This document shows, piece after piece, positions 3,451 to 63,422 of a stretch of DNA of 64,000 nt (positions are counted from its first letter, which is position 1; each line of letters begins with the position of its first letter). Under the pieces are notes generated by a model, which had not been told where the DNA came from, ran no database searches, and saw only the letters and a program-made list of their open reading frames with translations. Location of the stretch: the NCBI GenBank assembly GCA_032718475.1, contig JAUCBJ010003564.1, positions 1-64,000 on the forward strand, in the 5' to 3' direction. Source of the DNA: Nemertoderma westbladi. Lineage: Eukaryota > Animalia > Xenacoelomorpha. Made by a program: the position numbers and the translations under genes.

Positions 3451-3553
3451 AATTTTGGGAAAGTTTTATAGATAGAAATAAACAAACAGTTTCATCAGTA
3501 TAGCTACTTAACCTTTCCAAACGTAACAATGACTCCCGAAATGAATGACTAAC

Positions 3554-6945: not shown

Positions 6946-7056
6946 TAATATTTTCTTTCGAGGTGTTCGTGCTTTTTAAACGAGAAGTGAAACTATTTTG
7001 GAATCACCTATCTTTTTTATGAAATTGATTTCTCAACTCTCCAAACCCGCAAGCGT

Positions 7057-10000
7057 TTCGACCCACATACATACCCTAGACCCGATCCACCAGCTGTTGT
7101 TCCCTCTCCGTTCGACCCACATACATACCCCTAGACTCGATCCACCAGCTGTGGTTCCCTCCCCGTTCGACCCACATACATACCCCTAGACCCGATCCAC
7201 CAGCTGTGGTTCCCTCCCCGTTCGACCCACATACATACCCCTAGACTAGATCCACCAGCTGTTGTTTCCTCCTCGTTCGACCCACATACATACCCCTAGA
7301 CTAGATCCACCAGCTGTTGTTCCCTCCCCGTTCGACCCACATACATACCCCTAGACTCGATCCACCAGCTGTTGTTCCTGTTGTTCCCTCTCCGTTCGAC
7401 CCACATACATACCCCTAGACTAGATCCACCAGCTGTTGTTCCCTCCCCGTTCGACCCACATACATACCCCTAGACTCTATCCACCAGCTGTTGTTCCCTC
7501 CCCGTTCGACCCACATACATACCCCTAGACCCGATCCACCAGCTGTGGTTCCCTCCCCGTTCGACCCACATACATACCCCTAGACCCGATCCACCAGCTG
7601 TGGTTCCCTCCCCGTTCGACCCACATACATACCCCTAGACCCGATCCACCAGCTGTGGTTCCCTCCCCGTTCGACCCACATACATACCCCTAGACTCGAT
7701 CCACCAGCTGTAGTTCCTGTTGTTTCCTCCCCGTTCGTCCCACATACATACCCCTAGACCCGATCCACCAGCTGTTGTTCCCTCCCCGTTCGACCCACAT
7801 ACATACCCCTAGACTAGATCCACCAGCTGTTGTTCCCTCCCCGTTCGACCCACATACATACCCCTAGACTCTATCCACCAGCTGTTGTTCCCTCCCCGTT
7901 CGACCCACATACATACCCCTAGACCCGATCCACCAGCTGTGGTTCCCTCCCCGTTCGACCCACATACATACCCCTAGACCCGATCCACCAGCTGTTGTTC
8001 CCTCCCCGTTTGTCCCACATACATACCCCTAGACCCGATCCACCAGCTGTGGTTCCCTCCCCGTTCGACCCACATACATACCCCTAGACTCGATCCACCA
8101 GCTGTTGTTTCCTCCTCGTTCGACCCACATACATACCCCTAGACTCGATCCACCAGCTGTTGTTTCCTCCTCGTTCGACCCACATACATACCCCTAGACC
8201 CGATCCACCAGCTGTGGTTCCCTCCCCGTTCGACCCACATACATACCCCTAGACTAGATCCACCAGCTGTTGTTCCCTCCCCGTTCGACCCACATACATA
8301 CCCCTAGACTAGATCCACCAACTGTTGTTCCCTCCCCGTTTGTCCCACATACATACCCCTAGACTCGATCCACCAGCTGTTGTTCCCTCCCCGTTCAACC
8401 CACATACATACCCCTAGACTCGATCCACCAGCTGTTGTTCCCTCCCCGTTCGACCCACATACATACCCCTAGACCCGATCCACCAGCTGTGGTTCCCTCC
8501 CCGTTCGACCCACATACATACCCCTAGACCCGATCCACCAGCTGTGGTTCCCTCCCCGTTCGACCCACATACATACCCCTAGACTCGATCCACCAGCTGT
8601 TGTTTCCTCCTCGTTCGACCCACATACATACCCCTAGACTCGATCCACCAGCTGTTGTTTCCTCCTCGTTCGACCCACATACATACCCCTAGACCCGATC
8701 CACCAGCTGTGGTTCCCTCCCCGTTCGACCCACATACATACCCCTAGACTAGATCCACCAGCTGTTGTTCCCTCCCCGTTCGACCCACATACATACCCCT
8801 AGACTAGATCCACCAGCTGTGGTTCCCTCCCCGTTCGACCCACATACATACCCCTAGACTAGATCCACCAGCTGTTGTTCCCTCCCCGTTCGACCCACAT
8901 ACATACCCCTAGACCCGATCCACCAGCTGTGGTTCCCTCCCCGTTCGACCCACATACATACCCCTAGACTCGATCCACCAGCTGTTGTTCCCTCCCCGTT
9001 CAACCCACATACATACCCCTAGACTCGATCCACCAGCTGTTGTTCCCTCCCCGTTCAACCCACATACATACCCCTAGACCCGATCCACCAGCTGTGGTTC
9101 CCTCCCCGTTCGACCCACATACATACCCCTAGACTCGATCCACCAGCTGTTGTTCCCTCCCCGTTCAACCCACATACATACCCCTAGACTCGATCCACCA
9201 GCTGTTGTTCCCTCCCCGTTCAACCCACATACATACCCCAAGACTCGATCCACCAGCTGTGGTTCCCTCCCCGTTCAACCCACATACATACCCCTAGACC
9301 CGATCCACCAGCTGTGGTTCCCTCCCCGTTCGACCCACATACATACCCCTAGACCCGATCCACCAGCTGTTGTTCCCTCCCCGTTCGACCCACATACATA
9401 CCCCAAGACTAGATCCACCAGCTGTTGTTCCTGTTGTTCCCTCCCCGTTCAACCCACATACATACCCCTAGACTAGATCCACCAGCTGTTGTTCCCTCCC
9501 CGTTCGACCCACATACATACCCCAAGACTAGATCCACCAGCTGTTGTTCCCTCCCCGTTCGACCCACATACATACCCCTAGACCCGATCCACCAGCTGTT
9601 GTTCCCTCCCCGTTCGACCCACATACATACCCCAAGACTAGATCCACCAGCTGTTGTTCCTGTTGTTCCCTCCCCGTTCAACCCACATACATACCCCTAG
9701 ACTAGATCCACCAGCTGTTGTTCCCTCCCCGTTCGACCCACATACATACCCCAAGACTAGATCCACCAGCTGTTGTTCCCTCCCCGTTCGACCCACATAC
9801 ATACCCCAAGACTCGATCCACCAGCTGTGGTTCCCTCCCCGTTCAACCCACATACATACCCCTAGACCCGATCCACCAGCTGTGGTTCCCTCCCCGTTCG
9901 ACCCACATACATACCCCTAGACCCGATCCACCAGCTGTTGTTCCCTCCCCGTTCGACCCACATACATACCCCAAGACTAGATCCACCAGCTGTTGTTCCT

Positions 10001-13000
10001 GTTGTTCCCTCCCCGTTCAACCCACATACATACCCCTAGACTAGATCCACCAGCTGTTGTTCCCTCCCCGTTCGACCCACATACATACCCCAAGACTAGA
10101 TCCACCAGCTGTTGTTCCCTCCGCGTTCGACCCACATACATACCCCAAGACTAGATCCACCAGCTGTTGTTCCTGTTGTTCCCTCCCCGTTCAACCCACA
10201 TACATACCCCTAGACTAGATCCACCAGCTGTTGTTCCCTCCCCGTTCGACCCACATACATACCCCAAGACTAGATCCACCAGCTGTTGTTCCCTCCCCGT
10301 TCGACCCACATACATACCCCAAGACTAGATCCACCAGCTGTTGTTCCCTCCCCGTTCGACCCACATACATACCCCAAGACTCGATCCACCAGCTGTGGTT
10401 CCCTCCCCGTTCAACCCACATACATACCCCTAGACCCGATCCACCAGCTGTTGTTCCTGTTGTTCCCTCCCCGTTCGACCCACATACATACCCCTAGACT
10501 CGATCCACCAGCTGTTGTTCCCTCCCCGTTCAACCCACATACATACCCCAAGACTCGATCCACCAGCTGTTGTTCCCTCCCCGTTCGACCCACATACATA
10601 CCCCAAGACTCGATCCACCAGCTGTTGTTCCCTCCCCGTTCGACCCACATACATACCCCTAGACTCGATCCACCAGCTGTAGTTCCTGTTGTTCCCTCCC
10701 CGTTCGACCCACATACATACCCCTAGACTCGATCCACCAGCTGTTGTTCCCTCCCCGTTCGACCCACATACATACCCCTAGACTCGATCCACCAGCTGTT
10801 GTTCCCTCCCCGTTCGACCCACATACATACCCCTAGACTCGATCCACCAGCTGTTGTTCCCTCCCCGTTCGACCCACATACATACCCCTAGACTCGATCC
10901 ACCAGCTGTGGTTCCCTCCCCGTTCGACCCACATACATACCCCTAGACTCGATCCACCAGCTGTAGTTCCCTCCCCGTTCAACCCACATACATACCCCTA
11001 GACTCGATCCACCAGCTGTTGTTCCCTCCCCGTTCAACCCACATACATACCCCTAGACTAGATCCACCAGCTGTTGTTCCCTCCCCGTTCGACCCACATA
11101 CATACCCCAAGACTCGATCCACCAGCTGTGGTTCCCTCCCCGTTCAACCCACATACATACCCCAAGACTCGATCCACCAGCTGTGGTTCCCTCCCCGTTC
11201 AACCCACATACATACCCCTAGACCCGATCCACCAGCTGTTGTTCCCTCTCCGTTCGACCCACATACATACCCCTAGACTCGATCCACCAGCTGTAGTTCC
11301 TGTTGTTCCCTCCCCGTTCGACCCACATACATACCCCTAGACTCGATCCACCAGCTGTTGTTCCCTCCCCGTTCAACCCACATACATACCCCTAGACTCG
11401 ATCCACCAGCTGTTGTTCCCTCCCCGTTCGACCCACATACATACCCCAAGACTCGATCCACCAGCTGTTGTTCCCTCCCCGTTCGACCCACATACATACC
11501 CCTAGACTCGATCCACCAGCTGTTGTTCCCTCCCCGTTCGACCCACATACATACCCCTAGACTCGATCCACCAGCTGTTGTTCCCTCCCCGTTCGACCCA
11601 CATACATACCCCTAGACCCGATCCACCAGCTGTTGTTCCCTCCCCGTTCGACCCACATACATACCCCAAGACTCGATCCACCAGCTGTGGTTCCCTCCCC
11701 GTTCAACCCACATACATACCCCTAGACCCGATCCACCAGCTGTGGTTCCCTCCCCGTTCGACCCACATACATACCCCTAGACCCGATCCACCAGCTGTTG
11801 TTCCCTCCCCGTTCGACCCACATACATACCCCAAGACTAGATCCACCAGCTGTTGTTCCTGTTGTTCCCTCCCCGTTCAACCCACATACATACCCCTAGA
11901 CTAGATCCACCAGCTGTTGTTCCCTCCCCGTTCGACCCACATACATACCCCAAGACTAGATCCACCAGCTGTTGTTCCCTCCCCGTTCGACCCACATACA
12001 TACCCCAAGACTAGATCCACCAGATGTTGTTCCTGTTGTTCCCTCCCCGTTCAACCCACATACATACCCCTAGACTAGATCCACCAGCTGTTGTTCCCTC
12101 CCCGTTCGACCCACATACATACCCCAAGACTAGATCCACCAGCTGTTGTTCCCTCCCCGTTCGACCCACATACATACCCCAAGACTCGATCCACCAGCTG
12201 TGGTTCCCTCCCCGTTCAACCCACATACATACCCCTAGACCCGATCCACCAGCTGTGGTTCCCTCCCCGTTCGACCCACATACATACCCCTAGACCCGAT
12301 CCACCAGCTGTTGTTCCCTCCCCGTTCGACCCACATACATACCCCAAGACTAGATCCACCAGCTGTTGTTCCTGTTGTTCCCTCCCCGTTCAACCCACAT
12401 ACATACCCCTAGACTAGATCCACCAGCTGTTGTTCCCTCCCCGTTCGACCCACATACATACCCCAAGACTAGATCCACCAGCTGTTGTTCCCTCCCCGTT
12501 CGACCCACATACATACCCCAAGACTAGATCCACCAGCTGTTGTTCCTGTTGTTCCCTCCCCGTTCAACCCACATACATACCCCTAGACTAGATCCACCAG
12601 CTGTTGTTCCCTCCCCGTTCGACCCACATACATACCCCAAGACTAGATCCACCAGCTGTTGTTCCCTCCCCGTTCGACCCACATACATACCCCAAGACTA
12701 GATCCACCAGCTGTTGTTCCCTCCCCGTTCGACCCACATACATACCCCAAGACTCGATCCACCAGCTGTGGTTCCCTCCCCGTTCAACCCACATACATAC
12801 CCCTAGACCCGATCCACCAGCTGTTGTTCCTGTTGTTCCCTCCCCGTTCGACCCACATACATACCCCTAGACCCGATCCACCAGCTGTTGTTCCCTCCCC
12901 GTTCGACCCACATACATACCCCTAGACTCGATCCACCAGCTGTTGTTCCCTCCCCGTTCAACCCACATACATACCCCAAGACTCGATCCACCAGCTGTTG

Positions 13001-16000
13001 TTCCCTCCCCGTTCGACCCACATACATACCCCAAGACTCGATCCACCAGCTGTTGTTCCCTCCCCGTTCGACCCACATACATACCCCTAGACTCGATCCA
13101 CCAGCTGTAGTTCCTGTTGTTCCCTCCCCGTTCGACCCACATACATACCCCTAGACTCGATCCACCAGCTGTTGTTCCCTCCCCGTTCGACCCACATACA
13201 TACCCCAAGACTCGATCCACCAGCTGTTGTTCCCTCCCCGTTCGACCCACATACATACCACTAGACTCGATCCACCAGCTGTTGTTCCCTCCCCGTTCAA
13301 CCCACATACATACCCCAAGACTCGATCCACCAGCTGTTGTTCCCTCCCCGTTCGACCCACATACATACCCCTAGACTCGATCCACCAGCTGTAGTTCCTG
13401 TTGTTCCCTCCCCGTTCGACCCACATACATACCCCTAGACTCGATCCACCAGCTGTTGTTCCCTCCCCGTTCAACCCACATACATACCCCTAGACTCGAT
13501 CCACCAGCTGTTGTTCCCTCCCCGTTCAACCCACATACATACCCCTAGACTCGATCCACCAGCTGTTGTTCCCTCCCCGTTCGACCCACATACATACCCC
13601 TAGACTACTAGATCCACCAGCTGTAGTCCCTGTTGTTTCCTCCCCGTTCGACCCACATACATACCCCTAGACTCGATCCACCAGCTGTTGTTCCCTCCCC
13701 GTTCGACCCACATACATACCCCAAGACTCGATCCACCAGCTGTTGTTCCCTCCACGTTCAACCCACATACATACCCCTAGACTAGATCCACCAGCTGTGG
13801 TTCCCTCCCCGTTCAACCCACATACATACCCCTAGACCCGATCCACCAGCTGTTGTTCCCTCCCCGTTCGACCCACATACATACCCCAAGACTCGATCCA
13901 CCAGCTGTGGTTCCCTCCCCGTTCAACCCACATACATACCCCTAGACCCGATCCACCAGCTGTGGTTCCCTCCCCGTTCGACCCACATACATACCCCTAG
14001 ACCCGATCCACCAGCTGTTGTTCCCTCCCCGTTCGACCCACATACATATCCCTAGACTAGATCCACCAGCTGTTGTTCCCTCCCCGTTCGACCCACATAC
14101 ATACCCCTAGACCAGATCCACCAGCTGTTGTTCCCTCCCCGTTCGACCCACATACATACCCCTAGACCCGATCCACCAGCTGTTGTTCCCTCCCCGTTCG
14201 ACCCACATACATACCCCTAGACTCGATCCACCAGCTGTTGTTCCTGTTGTTCCCTCCCCGTTCGACCCACATACATACCCCAAGACTAGATCCACCAGCT
14301 GTTGTTCCCTCCCCGTTCGACCCACATACATACCCCAAGACTCGATCCACCAGCTGTTGTTCCCTCCCCGTTCGACCCACATACATACCCCTAGACCCGA
14401 TCCACCAGCTGTTGTTCCTGTTGTTCCCTCCCCGTTCGACCCACATACATACCCCAAGACTAGATCCACCAGCTGTTGTTCCCTCCCCGTTCGACCCACA
14501 TACATACCCCAAGACTCGATCCACCAGCTGTGGTTCCCTCCCCGTTCAACCCACATACATACCCCTAGACCCGATCCACCAGCTGTTGTTCCCTCCCCGT
14601 TCGACCCACATACATACCCCTAGACTCGATCCACCAGCTGTGGTTCCCTCCCCGTTCGACCCACATACATACCCCTAGACTCGATCCACCAGCTGTTGTT
14701 CCTGTTGTTCCCTCCCCGTTCAACCCACATACATAGCCCTAGACCCGATCCACCAGCTGTGGCTCCCTCCCCGTTCGACCCACATACATACCCTTAGACG
14801 TGATCCACCAACTGTTGTTCCCTCCCCGTTCGTCTCACATACATACCCCTAGACTAGATCCACCAGCTGTTGTTCCCTCCCCGTTCGACCCACATACATA
14901 CCCCTAGACCCGATCCACCAGCTGTGGTTCCCTCCCCGTTCGACTCACATACATACCCCTAGACTAGATCCACCAGCTGTTGTTCCCTCCCCGTTCGACC
15001 CACATACATACCCCTAGACTCGATCCACCAACTGTTGTTCCCTCCCCGTTCAACCCACATACATACCCCTAGACTAGATCCACCAGATGTTGTTCCCTCC
15101 CCGTTCGACCCACATACATACCCTTAGACGTGATCCACCAACTGTTGTTCCCTCCCCGTTCAACCCACATACATACCCCTAGACTAGATCCACCAGCTGT
15201 TGTTCCCTCCCCGTTCGACCCACATACATACCCTTAGACGTGATCCACCAACTGTTGTTCCCTCCCCGTTCAACCCACATACATACCCCTAGACCCGATC
15301 CACCAACTGTTGTTCCCTCCCCGTTCAACCCACATACATACCCCTAGACTAGATCCACCAGATGTTGTTCCCTCCCCGTTCGACCCACATACATACCCTT
15401 AGACGTGATCCACCAACTGTTGTTCCCTCCCCGTTCAACCCACATACATACCCCTAGACCCGATCCACCAGCTGTGGTTCCCTCCCCGTTCGACCCACAT
15501 ACATACCCCTAGACTCGATCCACCAGCTGTTGTTCCCTCCCCGTTCGACCCACATACATACCCCTAGACTCGATCCACCAACTGTTGTTCCCTCCACGTT
15601 CAACCCACATACATACCCCTAGACCCGATCCACCAGCTGTTGTTCCCTCCCCGTTCAACCCACATACATACCCCTAGACCCGATCCACCAGCTGTGGTTC
15701 CCTCCCCGTTCGACCCACATACATACCCCTAGACTCGATCCACCAGCTGTTGTTCCCTCCCCGTTCGACCCACATACATACCCCTAGACTCGATCCACCA
15801 GCTGTTGTTCCCTCCACGTTCAACCCACATACATACCCCTAGACCCGATCCACCAGCTGTTGTTCCCTCCCCGTTCAACCCACATACATACCCCTAGACG
15901 TGATCCACCAACTGTTGTTCCCTCCCCGTTCAACCCACATACATACCCCTAGACTAGATCCACCAGCTGTTGTTCCCTCCCCGTTCGACCCACATACATA

Positions 16001-19000
16001 CCCTTAGACGTGATCCACCAACTGTTGTTCCCTCCCCGTTCGTCTCACATACATACCCCTAGACTACTAGATCCACCAGATGTTGTTCCCTCCCCGTTCG
16101 ACCCACATACATACCCCTAGACCCGATCCACCAGCTGTGGTTCCCTCCCCGTTCGACTCACATACATACCCCTAGACTCGATCCACCAACTGTTGTTCCC
16201 TCCCCGTTCAACCCACATACATACCCCTAGACTAGATCCACCAGATGTTGTTCCCTCCCCGTTCGACCCACATACATACCCTTAGACGTGATCCACCAAC
16301 TGTTGTTCCCTCCCCGTTCGTCTCACATACATACCCCTAGACCCGATCCACCAGCTGTGGTTCCCTCCCCGTTCGACTCACATACATACCCCTAGACTAG
16401 ATCCACCAGCTGTTGTTCCCTCCCCGTTCGACCCACATACATACCCTTAGACGTGATCCACCAACTGTTGTTCCCTCCCCGTTCGACCCACATACATACC
16501 CCTAGACCCGATCCACCAGCTGTTGTTCCCTCCCCGTTCGACCCACATACATACCCCTAGACTCTATCCACCAGCTGTGGTTCCCTCACCGTTCGACCCA
16601 CATACATACCCCAAGACTCGATCCACCAGCTGTTGTTCCTGTTGTTCCCTCCCCGTTTGTCCCACATTCATACCCCTAGACTCGATCCACCAGCTGTTGT
16701 TCCCTCCCCGTTCGACCCACATACATACCCCTAGACTCTATCCACCAGCTGTGGTTCCCTCACCGTTCGACCCACATACATACCCCTAGACTCGATCCAC
16801 CAGCTGTTGTTCCTGTTGTTCCCTCCCCGTTTGTCCCACATTCATACCCCTAGACTCGATCCACCAGCTGTTGTTCCCTCCCCGTTCGACCCACATACAT
16901 ACCCCTAGACTCGATCCACCAGCTGTTGTTCCCTCCCCGTTTGTCCCACATACATACCCCTAGACTCGATCCACCAGCTGTTGTTCCCTCCCCGTTCGAC
17001 CCACATACATACCCCTAGACTAGATCCACCAGCTGTTGTTCCCTCCCCGTTCGACCCACATACATACCCCTAGACTCTATCCACCAGCTGTGGTTCCCTC
17101 ACCGTTCGACCCACATACATACCCCAAGACTCGATCCACCAGCTGTTGTTCCCTCCCCGTTTGTCCCACATACATACCCCTAGACTCTATCCACCAGCTG
17201 TGGTTCCCTCACCGTTCGACCCACATACATACCCCAAGACTCGATCCACCAGCTGTTGTTCCCTCCCCGTTCGTCCCGCATACATACCCCTAGACTAGAT
17301 CCACCAGCTGTTGTTCCTGTTGTTCCCTCCCCGTTTGTCCCACATTCATACCCCTAGACCCGATCCACCAGCTGTTGTTCCCTCCCCGTTCGACCCACAT
17401 ACATACCCCTAGACTCGATCCACCAGCTGTTGTTCCTGTTGTTCCCTCCCCGTTTGTCCCACATTCATACCCCTAGACCCGATCCACCAGCTGTTGTTCC
17501 CTCCCCGTTCGACCCACATACATACCCCTAGACTCGATCCACCAGATGTTGTTCCCTCCCCGTTCGACCCACATACATACCCCAAGACTCGATCCACCAG
17601 CTGTTGTTCCCTCCCCGTTCGACCCACATACATACCCCTAGACCCGATCCACCAGCTGTTGTTCCCTCCCCGTTCGACCCACATACATACCCCTAGACTC
17701 GATCCACCAGATGTTGTTCCCTCCCCGTTCGACCCACATACATACCCCTAGACCCGATCCACCAGCTGTTGTTCCCTGCCCGCTCGACCCACATACATAC
17801 CCATAGACCCGATCCACCAGCTGTGGTTCCCTCCCCGTTCGACCCACATACATACCCCTAGACTCGATCCACCAGCTGTTGTTCCCTCCCCGTTCAACCC
17901 ACATACATACCCCTAGACCCGATCCACCAGCTGTTGTTCCCTCCCCGTTCAACCCACATACATACCCCAAGACTCGATCCACCAGCTGTTGTTCCCTCCC
18001 CGTTCAACCCACATACATACCCCAAGACTCGATCCACCAGCTGTTGTTCCCTCCCCGTTCGACCCACATACATACCCCTAGACTAGATCCACCAGCTGCT
18101 GTTCCCTCCCCGTTCGACCCACATACATACCCCTAGACTAGATCCACCAGCTGTGGCTCCCTCCACGTTCGTCCCACATACATACAACTAGACTCGATCC
18201 ACCAGCTGTTGTTCACTCCCCGTTCGACCCACATACATACCCCTAGACTCGATCCACCAGCTGTGGTTCCCTCCCCGTTCGACCCACATACATACCCATA
18301 GACTCGATCCACCAGCTGTTGTTCCTGTTGTTCCCTCCCCGTTCGACCCACATACATACCCCTAGACTCGATCCACCAGCTGTGGTTCCCTCCCCGTTCG
18401 ACCCACATACATACCCCTAGACTACTAGATCCACCAGCTGTAGTTCCTGTTGTTCCCTCCCCGTTCGACCCACATACATACCCCAAGACTCGATCCACCA
18501 GCTGTTGTTCCCTCCCCGTTCGACCCACATACATACCCCTAGACTCGATCCACCAGCTGTTGTTCCCTCCCCGTTTGTCCCACATACATACCCCTAGACC
18601 CGATCCACCAGCTGTTGTTCCCTCCCCGTTCGACCCACATACATACCCCTAGACTCGATCCACCAGCTGTGGTTCCCTCCCCGTTCGACCCACATACATA
18701 CCCCTAGACTCGATCCACCAGCTGTTGTTCCCTCCCCGTTCGACCCACATACATACCCCTAGACCCGATCCACCAGCTGTTGTTCCCTCCCCGTTCGACC
18801 CACATACATACCCCTAGACTCGATCCACCAGCTGTTGTTCCCTCCCCGTTCGACCCACATACATACCCCTAGACTCGATCCACCAGATGTTGTTCCCTCC
18901 CCGTTCGACCCACATACATACCCCTAGACTCGATCCACCAGCTGTTGTTCCCTCCCCGTTTGTCCCACATACATACCCCTAGACTCGATCCACCAGCTGT

Positions 19001-47400: not shown

Positions 47401-50400
47401 AGCTGTTGTTTCCTCCCCGTTCAACCCACATACATACCCCTAGACGTGATCCACCAACTGTTGTTCCCTCCCCGTTCAACCCACATACATACCCCTAGAC
47501 CCGATCCACCAGCTGTGGTTCCCTCCCCGTTCGACCCACATACATACCCCTAGACTCGATCCACCAGCTGTTGTTCCCTCCCCGTTCGACCCACATACAT
47601 ACCCCTAGACCCGATCCACCAGCTGTTGTTCCCTCCCCGTTCGACCCACATACATACCCCTAGACTAGATCCACCAGCTGTTGTTCCCTCCCCGTTCGAC
47701 CCACATACATACCCCTAGACTCGATCCACCAGCTGTTGTTCCCTCCCCGTTCGACCCACATACATACCCCTAGACCCGATCCACCAACTGTTGTTCCCTC
47801 CCCGTTCAACCCACATACATACCCCTAGACCCGATCCACCAGCTGTTGTTCCCTCCCCGTTCGACCCACATACATACCCCTAGACTCGATCCACCAGCTG
47901 TTGTTCCCTCCCCGTTCGACCCACATACATACCCCTAGACCCGATCCACCAACTGTTGTTCCCTCCCCGTTCAACCCACATACATACCCCTAGACCCGAT
48001 CCACCAGCTGTTGTTCCCTCCCCGTTCGACCCACATACATACCCCTAGACCCGATCCACCAACTGTTGTTCCCTCCCCGTTCAACCCACATACATACCCC
48101 TAGACCCGATCCACCAGCTGTTGTTCCCTCCCCGTTCGACCCACATACATACCCCAAGACTCGATCCACCAGCTGTTGTTCCCTCCCCGTTCGACCCACA
48201 TACATACCCCTAGACTAGATCCACCAGCTGTTGTTCCCTCCCCTTTCGACCCACATACATACCCCTAGACTCGATCCACCAGCTGTTGTTCCCTCCCCGT
48301 TCGACCCACATACATACCCCTAGACCCGATCCACCAACTGTTGTTCCCTCCCCGTTCAACCCACATACATACCCCTAGACCCGATCCACCAGCTGTTGTT
48401 CCCTCCCCGTTCGACCCACATACATACCCCTAGACTCGATCCACCAGCTGTTGTTCCCTCCCCGTTCGACCCACATACATACCCCTAGACCCGATCCACC
48501 AACTGTTGTTCCCTCCCCGTTCAACCCACATACATACCCCTAGACCCGATCCACCAGCTGTTGTTCCCTCCCCGTTCGACCCACATACATACCCCTAGAC
48601 CCGATCCACCAACTGTTGTTCCCTCCCCGTTCAACCCACATACATACCCCTAGACCCGATCCACCAGCTGTTGTTCCCTCCCCGTTCGACCCACATACAT
48701 ACCCCTAGACTCGATCCACCAGCTGTTGTTCCCTCCCCGTTCGACCCACATACATACCCCTAGACCCGATCCACCAACTGTTGTTCCCTCCCCGTTCAAC
48801 CCACATACATACCCCTAGACTCGATCCACCAGCTGTTGTTCCCTCCCCGTTCGACCCACATACATACCCCTAGACCCGATCCACCAACTGTTGTTCCCTC
48901 CCCGTTCAACCCACATACATACCCCTAGACCCGATCCACCAGCTGTTGTTCCCTCCCCGTTCGACCCACATACATACCCCTAGACTCGATCCACCAGCTG
49001 TTGTTCCCTCCCCGTTCGACCCACATACATACCCCTAGACTCGATCCACCAGCTGTTGTTCCCTCCCCGTTCGACCCACATACATACCCCTAGACTCGAT
49101 CCACCAACTGTTGTTCCCTCCCCGTTCAACCCACATACATACCCCTAGACCCGATCCACCAGCTGTTGTTCCCTCCCCGTTCGACCCACATACATACCCC
49201 TAGACCCGATCCACCAGCTGTTGTTCCCTCCCCGTTCAACCCACATACATACCCCTAGACTCGATCCACCAGCTGTTGTTCCCTCCCCGTTCGACCCACA
49301 TACATACCCCTAGACTCGATCCACCAGCTGTTGTTCCCTCCCCGTTCGACCCACATACATACCCCTAGACCCGATCCACCAGCTGTTGTTCCCTCCCCGT
49401 TCAACCCACATACATACCCCTAGACTCGATCCACCAGCTGTTGTTCCCTCCCCGTTCGACCCACATACATACCCCTAGACCCGATCCACCAGCTGTTGTT
49501 CCCTCCCCGTTCAACCCACATACATACCCCTAGACCCGATCCACCAGCTGTTGTTCCCTCCCCGTTCGACCCACATACATACCCCTAGACTCGATCCACC
49601 AGCTGTTGTTCCCTCCCCGTTCGACCCACATACATACCCCTAGACTCGATCCACCAAGCTGTTGTTCCCTCCCCGTTCAACCCACATACATACCCCTAGA
49701 CCCGATCCACCAGCTGTTGTTCCCTCCCCGTTCGACCCACATACATACCCCTAGACTCGATCCACCAGCTGTTGTTCCCTCCCCGTTCGACCCACATACA
49801 TACCCCTAGACTCGATCCACCAGCTGTTGTTCTCCTCCCCGTTCAACCCACATACATACCCCTAGACTAGATCCACCAGCTGTTGTTCCCTCCCCGTTCA
49901 ACCCACATACATACCCCTAGACGTGATCCACCAGCTGTTGTTCCCTCCCCGTTCAACCCACATACATACCCCTAGACTCGATCCACCAGCTGTTGTTCCC
50001 TCCCCGTTCAACCCACATACATACCCCTAGACTCGATCCACCAGCTGTTGTTCCCTCCCCGTTCAACCCACATACATACCCCTAGACTCGATCCACCAGC
50101 TGTTGTTCCCTCCCCGTTCAACCCACATACATACCCCTAGACTAGATCCACCAGCTGTTGTTCCCTCCCCGTTCAACCCACATACATACCCCTAGACGTG
50201 ATCCACCAACTGTTGTTCCCTCCCCGTTCAACCCACATACATACCCCTAGACTAGATCCACCAGCTGTTGTTCCCTCCCCGTTCAACCCACATACATACC
50301 CCTAGACTCGATCCACCAGCTGTTGTTCCCTCCCCGTTTGTCCCACATACATACCCCTAGACTCGATCCACCAGCTGTTGTTCCCTCCCCGTTCGACCCA

Positions 50401-53400
50401 CATACATACCCCTAGACTAGATCCACCAGCTGTGGTTCCCTCCCCGTTCAACCCACATACATACCCCTAGACTCGATCCACCAGCTGTTGTTCCCTCCCC
50501 GTTCGACCCACATACATACCCCTAGACTAGATCCACCAGCTGTTGTTCCCTCCCCGTTCGACCCACATACATACCCCTAGACTAGATCCACCAGCTGTTG
50601 TTCCCTCCCCGTTCGACCCACATACATACCCCTAGACTCGATCCACCAGCTGTTGTTCCCTCCCCGTTCAACCCACATACATACCCCTAGACTAGATCCA
50701 CCAGCTGTTGTTCCCTCCCCGTTCGACCCACATACATACCCCTAGACTCGATCCACCAGCTGTTGTTCCCTCCCCGTTCAACCCACATACATACCCCTAG
50801 ACTCGATCCACCAGCTGTTGTTCCCTCCCCGTTCGACCCACATACATACCCCTAGACTAGATCCACCAGCTGTTGTTCCCTCCCCGTTCGACCCACATAC
50901 ATACCCCTAGACTCGATCCACCAGCTGTTGTTCCCTCCCCGTTCGACCCACATACATACCCCTAGACTAGATCCACCAGCTGTTGTTCCCTCCCCGTTCG
51001 ACCCACATACATACCCCTAGACTCGATCCACCAGCTGTTGTTCCCTCCCCGTTCGACCCACATACATACCCCTAGACTCGATCCACCAGCTGTGTTCCTG
51101 TTGTTCCCTCCCCGTTCGTCCCACATACATACCCCTAGACTCGATCCACCAGCTGTTGTTCCCTCCCCGTTCGACCCACATACATACCCCTAGACTCGAT
51201 CCACCAGCTGTTGTTCCCTCCCCGTTCGACCCACATACATACCCCTAGACTCGATCCACCAGCTGTTGTTCCCTCCCCGTTCGACCCACATACATACCCC
51301 TAGACTCGATCCACCAGCTGTTGTTCCCTCCCCGTTCGACCCACATACATACCCCTAGACTCGATCCACCAGCTGTTGTTCCCTCCCCGTTCGACCCACA
51401 TACATACCCCTAGACTCGATCCACCAGCTGTTGTTCCCTCCCCGTTCGACCCACATACATACCCCTAGACTCGATCCACCAGCTGTTGTTCCCTCCCCGT
51501 TCGACCCACATACATACCCCTAGACTCGATCCACCAGCTGTTGTTCCCTCCCCGTTCGACCCACATACATACCCCTAGACTCGATCCACCAGCTGTTGTT
51601 CCCTCCCCGTTCGACCCACATACATACCCCTAGACTCGATCCACCAGCTGTTGTTCCCTCCCCGTTCGACCCACATACATACCCCTAGACTCGATCCACC
51701 AGCTGTTGTTCCCTCCCCGTTCAACCCACATACATACCCCTAGACTCGATCCACCAGCTGTTGTTCCCTCCCCGTTCAACCCACATACATACCCCTAGAC
51801 TCGATCCACCAGCTGTTGTTCCCTCCCCGTTCGACCCACATACATACCCCTAGACTCGATCCACCAGCTGTTGTTCCCTCCCCGTTCAACCCACATACAT
51901 ACCCCTAGACTCGATCCACCAGCTGTTGTTCCCTCCCCGTTCGACCCACATACATACCCCTAGACTCGATCCACCAGCTGTTGTTCCCTCCCCGTTCGAC
52001 CCACATACATACCCCTAGACTCGATCCACCAGCTGTTGTTCCCTCCCCGTTCGACCCACATACATACCCCTAGACTAGATCCACCAGCTGTTGTTCCCTC
52101 CCCGTTCGACCCACATACATACCCCTAGACTCGATCCACCAGCTGTTGTTCCCTCCCCGTTCGACCCACATACATACCCCTAGACTAGATCCACCAGCTG
52201 TTGTTCCCTCCCCGTTCGACCCACATACATACCCCTAGACTGATCCACCAGCTGTTGTTCCCTCCCCGTTCGACCCACATACATACCCCTAGACTCGATC
52301 CACCAGCTGTTGTTCCCTCCCCGTTCGACCCACATACATACCCCTAGACTCGATCCACCAGCTGTTGTTCCCTCCCCGTTCGACCCACATACATACCCCT
52401 AGACTCGATCCACCAGCTGTTGGTTCCCTCCCCGTTCGACCCACATACATACCCCTAGACCCGATCCACCAGCTGTTGTTCCCTCCCCGTTCGACCCACA
52501 TACATACCCCTAGACTCGATCCACCAGCTGTTGTTCCCTCCCCGTTCGACCCACATACATACCCCTAGACTCGATCCACCAGCTGTTGTTCCCTCCCCGT
52601 TCAACCCACATACATACCCCTAGACTCGATCCACCAGCTGTTGTTCCCTCCCCGTTCGACCCACATACATACCCCTAGACTCGATCCACCAGCTGTTGTT
52701 CCCTCCCCGTTCGACCCACATACATACCCCTAGACTCGATCCACCAGCTGTTGTTCCCTCCCCGTTCGACCCACATACATACCCCTAGACTCGATCCACC
52801 AGCTGTTGTTCCCTCCCCGTTCGACCCACATACATACCCCTAGACTCGATCCACCAGCTGTTGTTCCCTCCCCGTTCGACCCACATACATACCCCTAGAC
52901 TCGATCCACCAGCTGTTGTTCCCTCCCCGTTCGACCCACATACATACCCCTAGACTCGATCCACCAGCTGTTGTTCCCTCCCCGTTCGACCCACATACAT
53001 ACCCCTAGACTAGATCCACCAGCTGTTGTTCCCTCCCCGTTCGACCCACATACATACCCCTAGACTCGATCCACCAGCTGTTGTTCCCTCCCCGTTCGAC
53101 CCACATACATACCCCTAGACTCGATCCACCAGCTGTTGTTCCCTCCCCGTTCGACCCACATACATACCCCTAGACTCGATCCACCAGCTGTTGTTCCCTC
53201 CCCGTTCGACCCACATACATACCCCTAGACTCGATCCACCAGCTGTTGTTCCCTCCCCGTTCGACCCACATACATACCCCTAGACTCGATCCACCAGCTG
53301 TTGTTCCCTCCCCGTTCGACCCACATACATACCCCTAGACTCGATCCACCAGCTGTTGTTCCCTCCCCGTTCGACCCACATACATACCCCTAGACTCGAT

Positions 53401-56400
53401 CCACCAGCTGTTGTTCCCTCCCCGTTCGACCCACATACATACCCCTAGACTCGATCCACCAGCTGTTGTTCCCTCCCCGTTCGACCCACATACATACCCC
53501 TAGACTCGATCCACCAGCTGTTGTTCCCTCCCCGTTCGACCCACATACATACCCCTAGACTAGATCCACCAGCTGTTGTTCCCTCCCCGTTCGACCCACA
53601 TACATACCCCTAGACTCGATCCACCAGCTGTTGTTCCCTCCCCGTTCGACCCACATACATACCCCTAGACTCGATCCACCAGCTGTTGTTCCCTCCCCGT
53701 TCGACCCACATACATACCCCTAGACTCGATCCACCAGCTGTTGTTCCCTCCCCGTTCGACCCACATACATACCCCTAGACTCGATCCACCAGCTGTTGTT
53801 CCCTCCCCGTTCGACCCACATACATACCCCTAGACTCGATCCACCAGCTGTGGTTCCCTCCCCGTTCGACCCACATACATACCCCTAGACCCGATCCACC
53901 AGCTGTTGTTCCCTCCCCGTTCGACCCACATACATACCCCTAGACTAGATCCACCAGCTGTTGTTCCCTCCCCGTTCGACCCACATACATACCCCTAGAC
54001 TCGATCCACCAGCTGTTGTTCCCTCCCCGTTCGACCCACATACATACCCCTAGACTAGATCCACCAGCTGTTGTTCCCTCCCCGTTCGACCCACATACAT
54101 ACCCCTAGACTCGATCCACCAGCTGTTGTTCCCTCCCCGTTCGACCCACATACATACCCCTAGACTCGATCCACCAGCTGTTGTTCCTGTTGTTCCCTCC
54201 CCGTTCGACCCACATACATACCCCTAGACTCGATCCACCAGCTGTTGTTCCCTCCCCGTTCGACCCACATACATACCCCTAGACTCGATCCACCAGCTGT
54301 TGTTCCCTCCCCGTTCGACCCACATACATACCCCTAGACTCGATCCACCAGCGGTCCTGTTGTTCCCTCCCCGTTCGTCCCACATACATACCCCTAGACT
54401 CGATCCACCAGCTGTTGTTCCTGTTGTTCCCTCCCCGTTCGTCCCACATACATACCCCTAGACTAGATCCACCAGCTGTTGTTCCTGTTGTTCCCTCCCC
54501 GTTTGTCCCACATACATACCCCTAGACTAGATCCACCAGCTGTTGTTCCCTCCCCGTTCGACCCACATACATACCCCTAGACTCGATCCACCAGCTGTTG
54601 TTCCTGTTGTTCCCTCCCCGTTTGTCCCACATACATACCCCTAGACTCAGATCCACCAGCTGTTGTTCCTGTTGTTCCCTCCCCGTTCGTCCCACATACA
54701 TACCCCTAGACTCGATCCACCAGCTGTTGTTCCCTCCCCGTTCGACCCACATACATACCCCTAGACTCGATCCACCAGCTGTTGTTCCCTCCCCGTTCGA
54801 CCCACATACATACCCCTAGACTAGATCCACCAGCTGTTGTTCCCTCCCCGTTCGACCCGCATACATACCCCAAGACTCGATCCACCAGCTGTTGTTCCTG
54901 TTGTTCCCTCCCCGTTTGTCCCACATACATACCCCTAGACTCGATCCACCAGCTGTGGTTCCCTCCCCGTTCGACCCACATACATACCCCTAGACTAGAT
55001 CCACCAGCTGTTGTTCCCTCCCCGTTCGACCCACATACATACCCCTAGACTAGATCCACCAACTGTTGTTCCCTCCCCGTTCGACCCACATACATACCCC
55101 TAGACTAGATCCACCAGCTGTTGTTCCCTCCCCGTTTGTCCCACATACATACCCCTAGACTCGATCCACCAGCTGTTGTTCCCTCCCCGTTCGACCCACA
55201 TACATACCCCTAGACTCGATCCACCAGCTGTTGTTCCCTCCCCGTTCGACCCACATACATACCCCTAGACTAGATCCACCAGCTGTTGTTCCCTCCCCGT
55301 TTGTCCCACATACATACCCCTAGACTCGATCCACCAGCTGTTGTTCCCTCCCCGTTCGACCCACATACATACCCCTAGACTAGATCCACCAGCTGTTGTT
55401 CCCTCCCCGTTCGACCCACATACATACCCCTAGACTAGATCCACCAGCTGTTGTTCCCTCCCCGTTCGACCCACATACATACCCCTAGACTAGATCCACC
55501 AACTGTTGCTCCCTCCCCGTTCGACCCACATACATACCCCTAGACTCGATCCACCAGCTGTTGTTCCCTCCCCGTTCAACCCACATACATACCCCTAGAC
55601 TAGATCCACCAGCTGTTGTTCCCTCCCCGTTTGTCCCACATACATACCCCTAGACTCGATCCACCAGCTGTTGTTCCTGTTGTTCCCTCCCCGTTTGTCT
55701 CACATACATACCCCTAGACTCGATCCACCAGCTGTGGTTCCCTCCCCGTTCGACCCACATACATACCCCTAGACCCGATCCACCAGCTGTTGTTCCCTCC
55801 CCGTTCGACCCACATACATACCCCTAGACTAGATCCACCAGCTGTTGTTCCCTCCCCGTTTGTCCCACATACATACCCCAAGACTCGATCCACCAGCTGT
55901 TGTTCCTGTTGTTCCCTCCCCGTTTGTCCCACATACATACCCCTAGACTCGATCCACCAGCTGTTGTTCCCTCCCCGTTCGACCCACATACATACCCCTA
56001 GACTAGATCCACCAGCTGTTGTTCCCTCCCCGTTCGACCCACATACATACCCCTAGACTCGATCCACCAGCTGTTGTTCCTGTTGTTCCCTCCCCGTTTG
56101 TCCCACATACATACCCCAAGACTCGATCCACCAGCTGTTGTTCCTGTTGTTCCCTCCCCGTTCGACCCACATACATACCCCTAGACCCGATCCACCAGCT
56201 GTTGTTCCCTCCCCGTTCGACCCACATACATACCCCTAGACTAGATCCACCAGCTGTTGTTCCCTCCCCGTTCGACCCACATACATACCCCTAGACTCGA
56301 TCCACCAGCTGTTGTTCCTGTTGTTCCCTCCCCGTTTGTCCCACATACATACCCCAAGACTCGATCCACCAGCTGTTGTTCCTGTTGTTCCCTCCCCGTT

Positions 56401-59400
56401 CGACCCACATACATACCCCTAGACTCTATCCACCAGCTGTGGTTCCCTCCCCGTTCGACCCACATACATACCCCAAGACTCGATCCACCAGCTGTTGTTC
56501 CCTCCCCGTTCGACCCACATACATACCCCAAGACTCGATCCACCAGCTGTTGTTCCTGTTGTTCCCTCCCCGTTTGTCCCACATACATACCCCTAGACTC
56601 GATCCACCAGCTGTGGTTCCCTCCCCGTTCGACCCACATACATACCCCTAGACCCGATCCACCAGCTGTGGTTCCCTCCCCGTTCGACCCACATACATAC
56701 CCCAAGACTCGATCCACCAGCTGTTGTTCCTGTTGTTCCCTCCCCGTTTGTCCCACATACATACCCCTAGACTCGATCCACCAGCTGTTGTTCCCTCCCC
56801 GTTCGACCCACATACATACCCCTAGACTCGATCCACCAGCTGTTGTTCCCTCCCCGTTCGACCCACATACATACCCCAAGACTCGATCCACCAGCTGTTG
56901 TTCCTGTTGTTCCCTCCCCGTTTGTCCCACATACATACCCCTAGACCCGATCCACCAGCTGTTGTTCCCTCCCCGTTCGACCCACATACATACCCCAAGA
57001 CTCGATCCACCAGCTGTTGTTCCTGTTGTTCCCTCCCCGTTTGTCCCACATACATACCCCAAGACTCGATCCACCAGCTGTTGTTCCTGTTGTTCCCTCC
57101 CCGTTTGTCCCACATTCATACCCCTAGACCCGATCCACCAGCTGTTGTTCCCTCCCCGTTCGACCCACATACATACCCCTAGACTCGATCCACCAGCTGT
57201 TGTTCCTGTTGTTCCCTCCCCGTTTGTCCCACATACATACCCCAAGACTCGATCCACCAGCTGTTGTTCCTGTTGTTCCCTCCCCGTTTGTCCCACATTC
57301 ATACCCCTAGACCCGATCCACCAGCTGTTGTTCCCTCCCCGTTCGACCCACATACATACCCCAAGACTCGATCCACCAGCTGTTGTTCCTGTTGTTCCCT
57401 CCCCGTTTGTCCCACATACATACCCCAAGACTCGATCCACCAGCTGTTGTTCCTGTTGTTCCCTCCCCGTTTGTCCCACATTCATACCCCTAGACGCGAT
57501 CCACCAGCTGTTGTTCCCTCCCCGTTCAACCCACATACATACCCCTAGACCCGATCCACCAGCTGTTGTTCCCTCCCCGTTCGACCCACATACATACCCC
57601 TAGACTCGATCCACCAGCTGTTGTTCCCTCCCCGTTCGACCCACATACATACCCCTAGACTCGATCCACCAGCTGTGGTTCCCTCCCCGTTCGACCCACA
57701 TACATACCCCTAGACCCGATCCACCAGCTGTTGTTCCCTCCCCGTTCGACCCACATACATACCCCTAGACTAGATCCACCAGCTGTTGTTCCTGTTGTTC
57801 CCTCCCCGTTTGTCCCACATACATACCCCTAGACCCGATCCACCAGATGTTGTTCCCTCCCCGTTTGTCCCACATACATACCCCTAGACCCGATCCACCA
57901 GATGTTGTTCCCTCCCCGTTTGTCCCACATACATACCCCTAGACTAGATCCACCAGATGTTGTTCCCTCCCCGTTTGTCCCACATACATACCCCTAGACT
58001 CGATCCACCAGCTGTTGTTCCTGTTGTTCCCTCCCCGTTTGTCCCACATACATACCCCTAGACTAGATCCACCAGCTGTTGTTCCCTCCCCGTTCGACCC
58101 TCATACATACCCCTAGACTCGATCCACCAGTTGTTGTTCCCTCCCCGTTCGACCCACATACATACCCCTAGACTCGATCCACCAGCTGTGGTTCCCTCCC
58201 CGTTTGTCCCACATACATACCCCTAGACCCGATCCACCAGCTGTTGTTCCCTCCCCGTTCGACCCACATACATACCCCTAGACTAGATCCACCAGCTGTT
58301 GTTCCTGTTGTTCCCTCCCCGTTTGTCCCACATACATACCCCTAGACCCGATCCACCAGCTGTTGTTCCCTGCCCGCTCGACCCACATACATACCCCAAG
58401 ACTCGATCCACCAGCTGTTGTTCCCTCCCCGTTCGACCCACATACATACCCCTAGACTAGATCCACCAGCTGTTGTTCCCTGCCCGCTCGACCCACATAC
58501 ATACCCCAAGACTCGATCCACCAGCTGTTGTTCCCTCCCCGTTCGACCCACATACATACCCCTAGACTCGATCCACAAGCTGTTGTTCCTGTTGTTCCCT
58601 CCCCGTTCAACCCACATACATAGCCCTAGACTCGATCCACCAGCTGTTGTTCCCTCCCCGTTCGACCCACATACATACCCCTAGACTAGATCCACCAGCT
58701 GTTGTTCCCTGCCCGCTCGACCCACATACATACCCCAAGACTCGATCCACCAGCTGTTGTTCCCTCCCCGTTCAACCCACATACATACCCCTAGACTCGA
58801 TCCACCAGCTGTTGTTCCCTCCCCGTTCAACCCACATACATACCCCTAGACTCGATCCACCAGCTGTTGTTCCCTCCCCGTTCGACCCACATACATACCC
58901 CTAGACTCGATCCACCAGCTGTAGTTCCTGTTGTTCCCTCCCCGTTCGACCCACATACATACCCCTAGACTCGATCCACCAGATGTTGTTCCCTCCCCGT
59001 TCGACCCACATACATACCCCTAGACTCGATCCACCAGCTGTTGTTCCCTCCCCGTTCGACCCACATACATACCCCTAGACTCGATCCACCAGCTGTTGTT
59101 CCCTCCCCGTTTGTCCCACATACATACCCCTAGACTCGATCCACCAGCTGTTGTTCCCTCCCCGTTTGTCCCACATACATACCCCTAGACCCGATCCACC
59201 AGCTGTGGTTCCCTCCCCGTTTGTCCCACATACATACCCCTAGACTCGATCCACCAGCTGTTGTTCCCTCCCCGTTTGTCCCACATACATACCCCTAGAC
59301 TCGATCCACCAGCTGTTGTTCCCTCCCCGTTCGACCCACATACATACCCCTAGACTAGATCCACCAGCTGTTGTTCCCTCCCCGTTCGACCCACATACAT

Positions 59401-62075
59401 ACCCCTAGACTAGATCCACCAGCTGTTGTTCCCTGCCCGCTCGACCCACATACATACCCCAAGACTCGATCCACCAGCTGTTGTTCCCTCCCCGTTCAAC
59501 CCACATACATACCCCTAGACTCGATCCACCAGCTGTTGTTCCCTCCCCGTTCAACCCACATACATACCCCTAGACTCGATCCACCAGCTGTTGTTCCCTC
59601 CCCGTTCGACCCACATACATACCCCTAGACTCGATCCACCAGCTGTAGTTCCTGTTGTTCCCTCCCCGTTCGACCCACATACATACCCCTAGACTCGATC
59701 CACCAGATGTTGTTCCCTCCCCGTTCGACCCACATACATACCCCTAGACTCGATCCACCAGCTGTTGTTCCCTCCCCGTTCGACCCACATACATACCCCT
59801 AGACTCGATCCACCAGCTGTTGTTCCCTCCCCGTTTGTCCCACATACATACCCCTAGACTCGATCCACCAGCTGTTGTTCCCTCCCCGTTTGTCCCACAT
59901 ACATACCCCTAGACCCGATCCACCAGCTGTGGTTCCCTCCCCGTTTGTCCCACATACATACCCCTAGACTCGATCCACCAGCTGTTGTTCCCTCCCCGTT
60001 TGTCCCACATACATACCCCTAGACTCGATCCACCAGCTGTTGTTCCCTCCCCGTTCGACCCACATACATACCCCTAGACTAGATCCACCAGCTGTTGTTC
60101 CCTCCCCGTTCGACCCACATACATACCCCTAGACTAGATCCACCAGCTGTTGTTCCCTCCCCGTTCGACCCACATACATACCCCTAGACTCGATCCACCA
60201 GCTGTTGTTCCCTCCCCGTTTGTCCCACATACATACCCCTAGACTCGATCCACCAGCTGTTGTTCCCTCCCCGTTTGTCCCACATACATACCCCTAGACC
60301 CGATCCACCAGCTGTGGTTCCCTCCCCGTTTGTCCCACATACATACCCCTAGACTCGATCCACCAGCTGTTGTTCCCTCCCCGTTTGTCCCACATACATA
60401 CCCCTAGACTCGATCCACCAGCTGTTGTTCCCTCCCCGTTCGACCCACATACATACCCCTAGACTAGATCCACCAGCTGTGGTTCCCTCCCCGTTTGTCC
60501 CACATACATACCCCTAGACTCGATCCACCAGCTGTTGTTCCCTCCCCGTTTGTCCCACATACATACCCCTAGACCCGATCCACCAGCTGTGGTTCCCTCC
60601 CCGTTTGTCCCACATACATACCCCTAGACTCGATCCACCAGCTGTTGTTCCCTCCCCGTTTGTCCCACATACATACCCCTAGACTCGATCCACCAGCTGT
60701 TGTTCCCTCCCCGTTCGACCCACATACATACCCCTAGACTAGATCCACCAGCTGTTGTTCCCTCCCCGTTCGACCCTCATACATACCCCTAGACTCGATC
60801 CACCAGCTGTTGTTCCCTCCCCGTTCGACCCACATACATACCCCTAGACTCGATCCACCAGCTGTGGTTCCCTCCCCGTTCGACCCACATACATACCCCT
60901 AGACTAGATCCACCAGCTGTTGTTCCCTCCCCGTTCGACCCACATACATACCCCTAGACTCGATCCACCAGCTGTGGTTCCCTCCCCGTTCGACCCACAT
61001 ACATACCCCTAGACTCGATCCACCAGCTGTTGTTCCCTCCCCGTTTGTCCCACATACATACCCCTAGACTAGATCCACCAGCTGTTGTTCCCTCCCCGTT
61101 CAACCCACATACATACCCCTAGACTCGATCCACCAGCTGTTGTTCCTGTTGTTCCCTCCCCGTTTGTCCCACATACATACCCCTAGACTCGATCCACCAG
61201 CTGTTGTTCCCTCCCCGTTCGACCCACATACATACCCCTAGACTAGATCCACCAGCTGTTGTTCCCTCCCCGTTCAACCCACATACATACCCCTAGACTC
61301 GATCCACCAGCTGTTGTTCCTGTTGTTCCCTCCCCGTTTGTCCCACATACATACCCCTAGACCCGATCCACCAGCTGTGGCTCCCTCCCCGTTCGACCCA
61401 CATACATACCCCTAGACCCGATCCACCAGCTGTGGTTCCCTCCCCGTTCGACCCACATACATACCACTAGACTCGATCCACCAGCTGTTGTTCCCTCCCC
61501 GTTTGTCCCACATACATACCCCTAGACTCGATCCACCAGCTGTTGTTCCCTCCCCGTTCGACCCACATACATACCCCTAGACTAGATCCACCAGCTGTTG
61601 TTCCATCCCCGTTCGACCCACATACATACCCCTAGACTAGATCCACCAGCTGTTGTTTCCTCCCCGTTCGACCCTCATACATACCCCTAGACTCGATCCA
61701 CCAGTTGTTGTTCCCTCCCCGTTCGTCCCACATACATACCCCTAAACTACTAGATCCACCAGCTGTTGTTCCTGTTGTTCCCTCCCCGTTTGTCCCACAT
61801 ACATACCCCTAGACTAGATCCACCAGCTGTTGTTCCCTCCCCGTTCGACCCTCATACATACCCCTAGACTCGATCCACCAGTTGTTGTTCCCTCCCCGTT
61901 CGTCCCACATACATACCCCTAGACCCGATCCACCAGCTGTTGTTCCCTCCCCGTTCGACCCACATACATACCCCTAGACTCGATCCACCAGTTGTTGTTC
62001 CCTCCCCGTTCGTCCCACATACATACCCCTAAACTACTAGATCCACCAGCTGTTGTTCCTGTTGTTCCCTCTCCG
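26497..62075. repeat. 55-bp tandem satellite, right block; the terminal unit overlaps the channel exon
   Basis: Same unit and orientation as the left block; merges into unique coding sequence at gttccctctccg|aagaatct (~62075). Confidence 0.99.
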
Positions 62076-62165
62076 AAGAATCTATCGAAGTTAATCACGT
62101 CGAATACATCGTAAGGAATGCATGCTAACATATCGATAACGAACCAACTCTTCACGTAATTCCAT
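62027..62165 (-). CDS. eag: EAG-family K+ channel exon: S3 and S3-S4 linker; its 3' end is the first unit of the 55-bp satellite
   Basis: Acceptor ttttttttcttattag; the first base completes AG|A (Arg) from the previous exon. (R)WNYVKSWFVIDMLACIPYDVFDVINFDRFFGEGTTGTTAGGSSSLG matches EAG [21 protein letters not shown]. Best donor is GGG|GTATGT (GT at 62026-62025), phase 0. The 3' boundary is inferred. Confidence 0.88.
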
Positions 62166-63241: not shown

Positions 63242-63396
63242 CTTATTAATTTAGGATCCGATATAACTTCTTCTAATGCACCAACGTATGTTGTGTGAAA
63301 GTTTAGCACTATGTCAATAAAGAATATTAAATCGATGACACAATTTGTCACAAAGAATGTGAGAGCGACTCGGTTTTTATAAATATTATTTGTGTC
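63242..63396 (-). CDS. eag: EAG-family (Kv10/KCNH1/5-like) K+ channel exon: S1-S2 linker, S2 and S2-S3 linker
   Basis: Manual translation [51 protein letters not shown](R) matches the EAG motif [23 protein letters not shown]. Acceptor tttttccctccacag, donor AG|gttaat; 155 nt, ends in phase 2. Confidence 0.93.
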
Positions 63397-63422
63397 CTGT
63401 GGAGGGAAAAATAAAAATAATT

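Follow-up and report, generated by a model that had tools for sequence, protein, structure and literature searches.

Tandem repeats that reiterate a 5' splice site within an intron are known from several human and lancelet genes. In human F7, the first monomer of a 37-bp variable number tandem repeat (VNTR) in intervening sequence 7 (IVS7) lies over the exon-intron boundary, the most upstream donor is used exclusively, and downstream copies become active only after loss of the upstream ones (PMC1557585). According to the Introduction of the same article, LMNB2 and PDGF use the first donor only, while CBS intron 13 and IFI 6-16 also use the second or third copy (PMC1557585). Each unit of the 25-bp VNTR in human ABCA7 intron 18 opens with a donor GT, alleles reach about 427 units or 10.7 kb, and use of the second donor shifts the frame of the mRNA (PMC5954066). 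The lancelet "mirages" of Adh3, BflGb6, BflGb9, troponin C and PGBD5 leave splicing undisturbed and show concerted evolution with distinct edges (PMC3087553, PMC3902484). Here, we describe a 64,000-nt stretch of DNA from the xenacoelomorph Nemertoderma westbladi (assembly GCA_032718475.1, contig JAUCBJ010003564.1, positions 1 to 64,000; "the window" throughout), in which a tandem array of 913 units lies in an intron of a predicted K+ channel gene. With moderate confidence we consider it probable that unit 1 forms the end of the S3 exon together with its donor, that the array arose by local duplication of this exon-intron junction, and that the first copy is the one spliced.

The array occupies 7057..62075 on the minus strand, which is the strand of the gene, and was divided by our own parse into 913 units of 55, 64 or 67 nt, while Tandem Repeats Finder (TRF) called a single 55-nt array at 7057-62059. 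Donor-to-donor spacing was 55 nt in 770, 64 nt in 122 and 67 nt in 9 of the 912 intervals. The donor GT is preserved in 910/913 units, and GGG/GTATGT (the slash marks an exon-intron border) is spelled at 867 of the 913 donor positions. A second GTATGT follows 4 bases after the first in nearly all units of the per-position table; with two in each unit, the nascent RNA would carry about 1,800 of these motifs, at a density of about 35 units per 2 kb. Units differ pairwise by a mean of 2.9/55 nt and the longest exact block duplication within the array comprises 13 units; the array is therefore heterogeneous and does not represent a collapsed or looped assembly. An earlier sequence-only reading had proposed a 55-kb satellite with about 900 tandem 5' splice sites, whose last unit continues into about 110 nt of unique intron. 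Site number and distal transition were borne out by the parse. The extent of the satellite was correct as well, but a long interspersed element (LINE) interrupts it at about 22951-26496 and leaves about 51.5 kb of repeat DNA.

In its build the locus resembles the systems named above, as the first unit spans the exon-intron boundary, placed here by homology, and the donor signal is reiterated in the copies. Concerted evolution inside the array with partly excluded edge units was also found, as in other junction-spanning minisatellites. F7 shares the identical donors reiterated in the intron from a boundary-spanning first unit; however, it has 5-9 copies with 4 exonic nt and its splicing was shown, whereas here 913 copies carry 36-48 exonic nt and splicing is predicted. 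CBS, IFI 6-16, LMNB2 and PDGF intron 4 reiterate their donors in the same way, with 10-25 copies compared to 913. The ABCA7 unit is without exon sequence, and its length polymorphism was shown together with the effects, while here the exonic part belongs to the unit and 913 units make up the 51.5 kb. BflGb6 has 3-6 units; the present array exceeds this by two orders of magnitude and contains a LINE, but is otherwise built alike. The chicken LL2R array (bioRxiv 10.64898/2026.03.19.712899) is likewise long and has donors in excess of acceptors; it is, however, a non-coding lampbrush transcription unit that concentrates small nuclear ribonucleoproteins, whereas the present array would lie in an intron of a coding gene. 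Among the published cases that we found, ABCA7 has the most donor copies, about 427, and 5-25 are usual. The array has about twice as many units as the largest of them and is about five times as long, and exact-word searching of the open-access literature returned none that was larger. It is a large example of a known architecture, and the mechanism is not new.

Channel exons were located by tblastn, which found three within the window (Table 1). They match consecutive segments of KCNH1/5, which supports the earlier assignment to a K+ channel, and are open throughout; their phases fit together and their splice sites are intact. The parts for the PAS domain, the K+ selectivity filter and the CNBHD fall beyond the window. 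The S2-S5 region resembles KCNH1/5 more than ERG or HCN (KCNH5 and KCNH1 about 1e-12 versus KCNH2 4e-09, and in a second comparison KCNH1 9e-07 versus HCN1 6e-03; these are E-value comparisons, with no tree), and the best matches of the exons among solved structures were KCNH1 and KCNH5. Judged by its sequence, the gene is an EAG-type (Kv10, KCNH1/5-like) K+ channel, with the S2, S3 and S4-S5 segments and the conserved S3-S4 intron of KCNH1 and KCNH5. It differs from these at about 55-65% identity by an S4 shifted by one residue and by a loop extension taken from the repeat unit. A HMMER search of 1.84 billion representative proteins yielded 416 matches at E ≤0.001, the best 150 of them at 44-59% identity, with the nearest proteins about 57% identical to the gene. 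A word-index protein search for an orthologue gave 0 matches among 19 candidates, and the S3 exon was confirmed in 0/601 candidates from metagenome scans. S4 (3640-3711, minus strand) reads K-II-R-LVV-R-IW-R-VA-R-H; compared to canonical EAG channels, one residue is missing ahead of S4 and one is added between its first and second arginine, an altered register that may change voltage sensing.

The S4 exon begins 28 residues ahead of the EYG motif, as do 66/91 exon-level homologue open reading frames (ORFs) that enter from an intron; 150 proteins were examined and 114 scored for this distance, and the script picked the Q nearest 28, which biases the count toward 28. The acceptor at 3711 (CAG/GTC GCT GAT) thereby coincides with the conserved EAG intron of phase 0, which calls for a donor of the same phase. 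Ahead of the read-through stop, phase-0 GTs are present at 62155, 62140, 62107, 62098, 62026, 61963, 61933 and 61924. Among these, GGG/GTATGT at 62026 comes closest to the donor consensus (6/9 letters) and is the first phase-0 GT past FDRFF. It sits 139 nt downstream of the S3 acceptor at 62166 (TTCTTATTAG/, pyrimidine fraction 0.87). Unique coding sequence (...PYDVFDVINFDRFF) continues in frame into unit 1, where GEGTTGTTAGGSSSLG/GTATGT places the GT at 62026, and the intron from there to the S4-S5 exon would measure 58,315 nt. Both the in-frame run into the first unit and the layout of a 58-kb join to the VADAFSTLK exon agree with what the sequence-only reading had described. Of all GTs standing at offset 0, +4 or +8 in the 913 units, only those of unit 1 (+0) and unit 2 (+8, a weak site) yield an open join to the next exon. 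Use of the second donor gives a frameshift (+55), and a TAG at 61921 precedes the third, so products of leaky splicing would be substrates of nonsense-mediated decay (NMD). Frameshift and TAG had been predicted correctly; the first donor is, however, not the sole in-frame choice, as weak phase-0 GTs exist at 61963, 61933 and 61924.

A competing possibility is that the gene is an EAG paralogue that is silent or in decay, or that its exon ends at GAC/GTGATT (62098), with the array as a neutral intronic satellite that contributes nothing to the mRNA. The divergent S4 register would fit the former, and the phase-0 GT at 62098 matches 5/9 consensus letters. An exon end at 62098, however, shortens the distance from PYD to EYG to 34 residues compared to 41 in 19/23 spliced homologues, leaving S3-S4 7 residues under the canonical length, and removes FDR, a motif of the insect-type NAFDRDED. 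The intactness of the three exons described above speaks against decay, as do the differences of unit 1 from the array, which are all silent or in frame, and 28/28 words sampled around the S4-S5 exon were present in each of two sequencing runs (X1 and X2). We regard this alternative as very improbable. Splicing at the first donor, which is common to junction duplication and to the exonisation discussed below, is on the predicted gene structure likely.

Internal splice sites would offer a different way of removing such an intron. None of the 2,105 YAG sites in the array has a pyrimidine fraction above 0.6, while the two real acceptors reach 0.87 and 0.67, and AGGT, the sequence of an internal AG/GT site, occurs once. 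Recursive or stepwise intron removal, as suggested earlier, was rejected on these counts. Masking of donors by RNA structure was also rejected, since the array RNA folds more weakly than shuffled sequences (z +2.1).

For the origin of the array, we compared unit 1 with the other units. It differs from the array consensus by 3 substitutions, 3/3 of them silent (chance 0.03-0.04; other three-substitution units were all-silent in 7/57), and by a 9-nt and a 3-nt insertion, both in frame. These silent and in-frame differences suggest that unit 1 is translated. Coding constraint over the whole array was rejected, as 36/912 units hold a stop in the exon frame and distinct variants are unbiased toward silent changes; among the commonest array substitutions, three of the top four are silent. 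The GGAGAG state of the exon was retained by only 4/912 parsed units (1, 839, 908 and 913), an enrichment at the far end that the sequence-only reading had already pointed to. Unit 6 (61739) carries the otherwise private 67-nt form of unit 1 including TTTAGGG, which suggests recent copying of the exon end into the array. Restriction of GGAGAG to these four units together with the copy in unit 6 fits a local duplication, after which the middle of the array was homogenised and exchange at the edge is ongoing. Units of 67 nt or related TAGTAG units were also seen 31-48 kb away.

The alternative is exonisation, in which the ancestral exon ended near FDRFF at canonical length and unit 1 of a minisatellite, intronic or inserted, was recruited as its new end. 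The old donor would have been lost or out-competed, GTATGT would be the new donor, the protein would have gained a 16-residue Gly/Thr/Ser loop, and the first donor would still be used. The distance from PYD to EYG is 58 residues with the repeat compared to the canonical 41, of which the unique part supplies 42 and the repeat adds 16, and the added peptide is of low complexity. Other introns in the window also hold minisatellites 13-22 nt from splice sites (a 27-mer from 3724 and a 42-mer from 63419). Moreover, EAG channels tolerate insertions at this loop: its length varies between the splice variants bEAG1 and bEAG2, the latter with 27 inserted residues (PMC2217119), and two of our homologues (P0096 and P0052) have insertions here as well. 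Against recruitment, no decayed donor is recognisable at TTC/GGAGAG, the array flanks show by eye no target-site duplication, and no other copy of the unit was found, neither elsewhere in the 64-kb window nor in metagenome contigs, where a 24-nt unit motif gave 0 matches. Homologues commonly have long variable loops at this position, and exchange with an array would be tolerated best in unconstrained residues, so the same coincidence of repeat and excess length would be expected after junction duplication. On the sequence evidence, origin via duplication of the old junction is favoured, and exonisation is rated as unlikely. Of the origin first proposed, the part that relies on the edge units was upheld, but not the ancestral exon status of the repeated 36-48 nt, which equal the linker excess. 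Either a loop that was already long and unconstrained offered the only site at which the repeat was tolerable, or the exon took up repeat sequence along with a new donor.

Under junction duplication, the array would have grown by unequal exchange. By exon definition, the strong acceptor at 62166 would be paired with the nearest strong donor at 62026, and commitment to this donor would occur before the distant acceptor is transcribed. Later copies, with no partner acceptor, would define no exons and stay mostly silent, while occasional use of donor 2 would lead via the frameshift to NMD, comparable to one-unit retention in ABCA7. The predicted product is a channel whose S3-S4 loop exceeds the usual length by 17 residues, with a sequence open to exchange with the array. 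That hundreds of competing donors pose a new puzzle, as had been claimed, is weakened by F7 with its exclusive use of the most upstream copy (PMC1557585).

An effect of the array on expression was considered in addition. The approximately 1,800 GTATGT motifs might bind U1 and pull some splicing events toward donor 2 or toward LINE acceptors, and channel output would then depend, via NMD, on the length of the array; in variants of this idea the array slows splicing or nucleates a splicing-factor body. Two GTATGT per unit would suit such a role, and the donor density is above that of chicken LL2R, for which >5 predicted donors per 2 kb are given (bioRxiv 10.64898/2026.03.19.712899). The length of the ABCA7 VNTR alters splicing (PMC5954066), and the LINE, inserted on the sense strand, contributes 7 strong YAG sites as well as 4 AATAAA in the direction of the gene. 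The array itself contains no AATAAA. Conversely, donors show no trace of having been selected for or against: the GT, invariant in 910/913 units, is not special, as many other positions of the unit are equally invariant. F7 pseudo-donors, moreover, do not compete even when strengthened (PMC1557585). We judge an expression effect decidedly improbable.

Table 1. Features of the 64-kb window, with positions and the basis of their assignment
Feature	Position	Strand	Basis
S2-region exon, predicted, EAG-type; CAG acceptor, phase-2 donor AAG/GTTAAT	63242..63396	-	tblastn with 8 EAG homologues, 54-65% identity; predicted borders
S3 exon, predicted; WNYVKSWF...PYDVFDVINFDRFF plus repeat-derived GEGTTGTTAGGSSSLG	62027..62165	-	KCNH1 residues 281-303, E 8.9e-07
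Unit 1, 67 nt; 48 nt of predicted exon end followed by the first 19 nt of the intron; donor GGG/GTATGT, G at 62026	62008..62074	-	parse
Proximal array, units 1-631	26497..62075	-	TRF and parse
APE-RT non-LTR retrotransposon, between units 631 and 632	~22951..26496 (3.5 kb)	- (strand of the gene)	ORF, domain profiles, junctions
Distal array, units 632-913; last unit keeps GGAGAG, followed by non-repeat intron	7057..22950	-	parse
Non-repeat intron after last unit	6946..7056	-	read from sequence and parse
S4-S5 exon, predicted; VADAFSTLKIIRL...EYGAA...ACIW; phase-0 acceptor CAG/GTC	3513..3711	-	KCNH5 residues 317-370, E 1.2e-12

Several observations weigh against translation of unit 1, its splicing at the first donor and an origin by junction duplication. 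The 62027/3711 junction was deduced from homology. CBS, IFI 6-16 and ABCA7 use a second or third copy too. In the exon-like part of the array, distinct variants are silent in 12/40 cases compared to 33/108 possible ones. The repeat provides 16 of the 17 linker residues in excess over homologues, which exonisation explains more simply. The top homologues are 45-58% identical, and none among the matches listed has this linker. Finally, S4 is shifted by one residue relative to all canonical EAG channels, and the gene may be unusual or decaying.

The window was compared with contigs, presumed to be of DNA, from four sequencing runs (X1 to X4), of which X1 and X2 belong to two studies, either possibly the source of the window assembly. 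Contigs of X1/X2 bridge the border between exon and unit 1 with 0 differences (62042-62397 and 62042-62420). The far flank (6946-7073) was covered by 0/4 runs, so distal border and array length rest on the window assembly. The summed unit depth relative to unique depth was 1,416 in X2, 280 in X1 and 10 in X3; as X1 and X3 derive from one sample, library bias alone spans 28-fold. Simulation of the window's array alone gave a ratio of 11,917 compared to the 1,416 observed in X2, values that permit only a rough copy number, because Logan contigs are simplified and the simulation graph is unsimplified. Within this rough test, the X2 depth below simulation is too low to accommodate a very large dispersed family. 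A loose-end test on 323 contigs found no run-on into unlike DNA, but missed the known exon and LINE junctions too, and with the unique flank uncovered it carries little weight. In X4, the summed 55-mer depth reached up to 63,324 at 7074-7170, with 0 of the sampled S4-S5 words. Noisy long reads or a GATC-enriched library (GATC occurs in each unit) would explain this depth; satellite RNA or many more copies elsewhere may also account for it.

The ORF of the LINE runs for at least 1,036 aa without a break and has matches to PF03372 (APE endonuclease, E 2e-10) and PF00078 (reverse transcriptase, RT, E 1.6e-24). Its 3' tail is (TAA)n and the target duplication comprises about 4 nt (TGGG). A search with its protein yielded 26 relatives at identities of at most 39%. 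The insertion is probably recent and 5'-truncated.

Further repeats were observed, and several splice sites of the gene are adjoined by tandem arrays. A 27-nt array of 119 copies (3724-6945) lies in the same intron as the 913 units, 13 nt from the S4 acceptor; it excludes the AG and covers the expected branch-point region. A 42-nt tandem array (63419-64000) starts some 22 nt away from the acceptor of the S2-region exon. A 63-nt repeat forms three arrays (1-706, 886-1670 and 2803-3452), the first of them opposite in orientation to the others. Most of the short intron is taken up by a high-copy dispersed element at 62359-63174, with a summed depth thousands of times that of unique sequence and many loose ends in the four runs.

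If a normal mRNA is made from this gene, the first donor is chosen over more than 900 equal competitors spread across 50 kb of an invertebrate genome. First-donor choice in this array would then test exon definition and co-transcriptional commitment naturally and at little cost. The exonic part of the repeat codes for the S3-S4 loop, in which a 27-residue insertion changes the activation kinetics of the bovine channel bEAG2 (PMC2217119), and exchange with the array may thus change channel behaviour. Units with in-frame 9-nt and 3-nt insertions number about 130 in the array. A bolder idea, which we hold to be quite unlikely, is that the satellite built the gating loop and still edits it, with unit 1 as the source of the entire loop extension and of the donor, the 900 copies as a reservoir of in-frame loop variants open to exchange with the exon, and a nascent RNA loaded with about 1,800 U1 sites. 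If true, this would be the largest natural test of first-donor selection that we found, and a protein loop would be evolving in concert with a 50-kb satellite.

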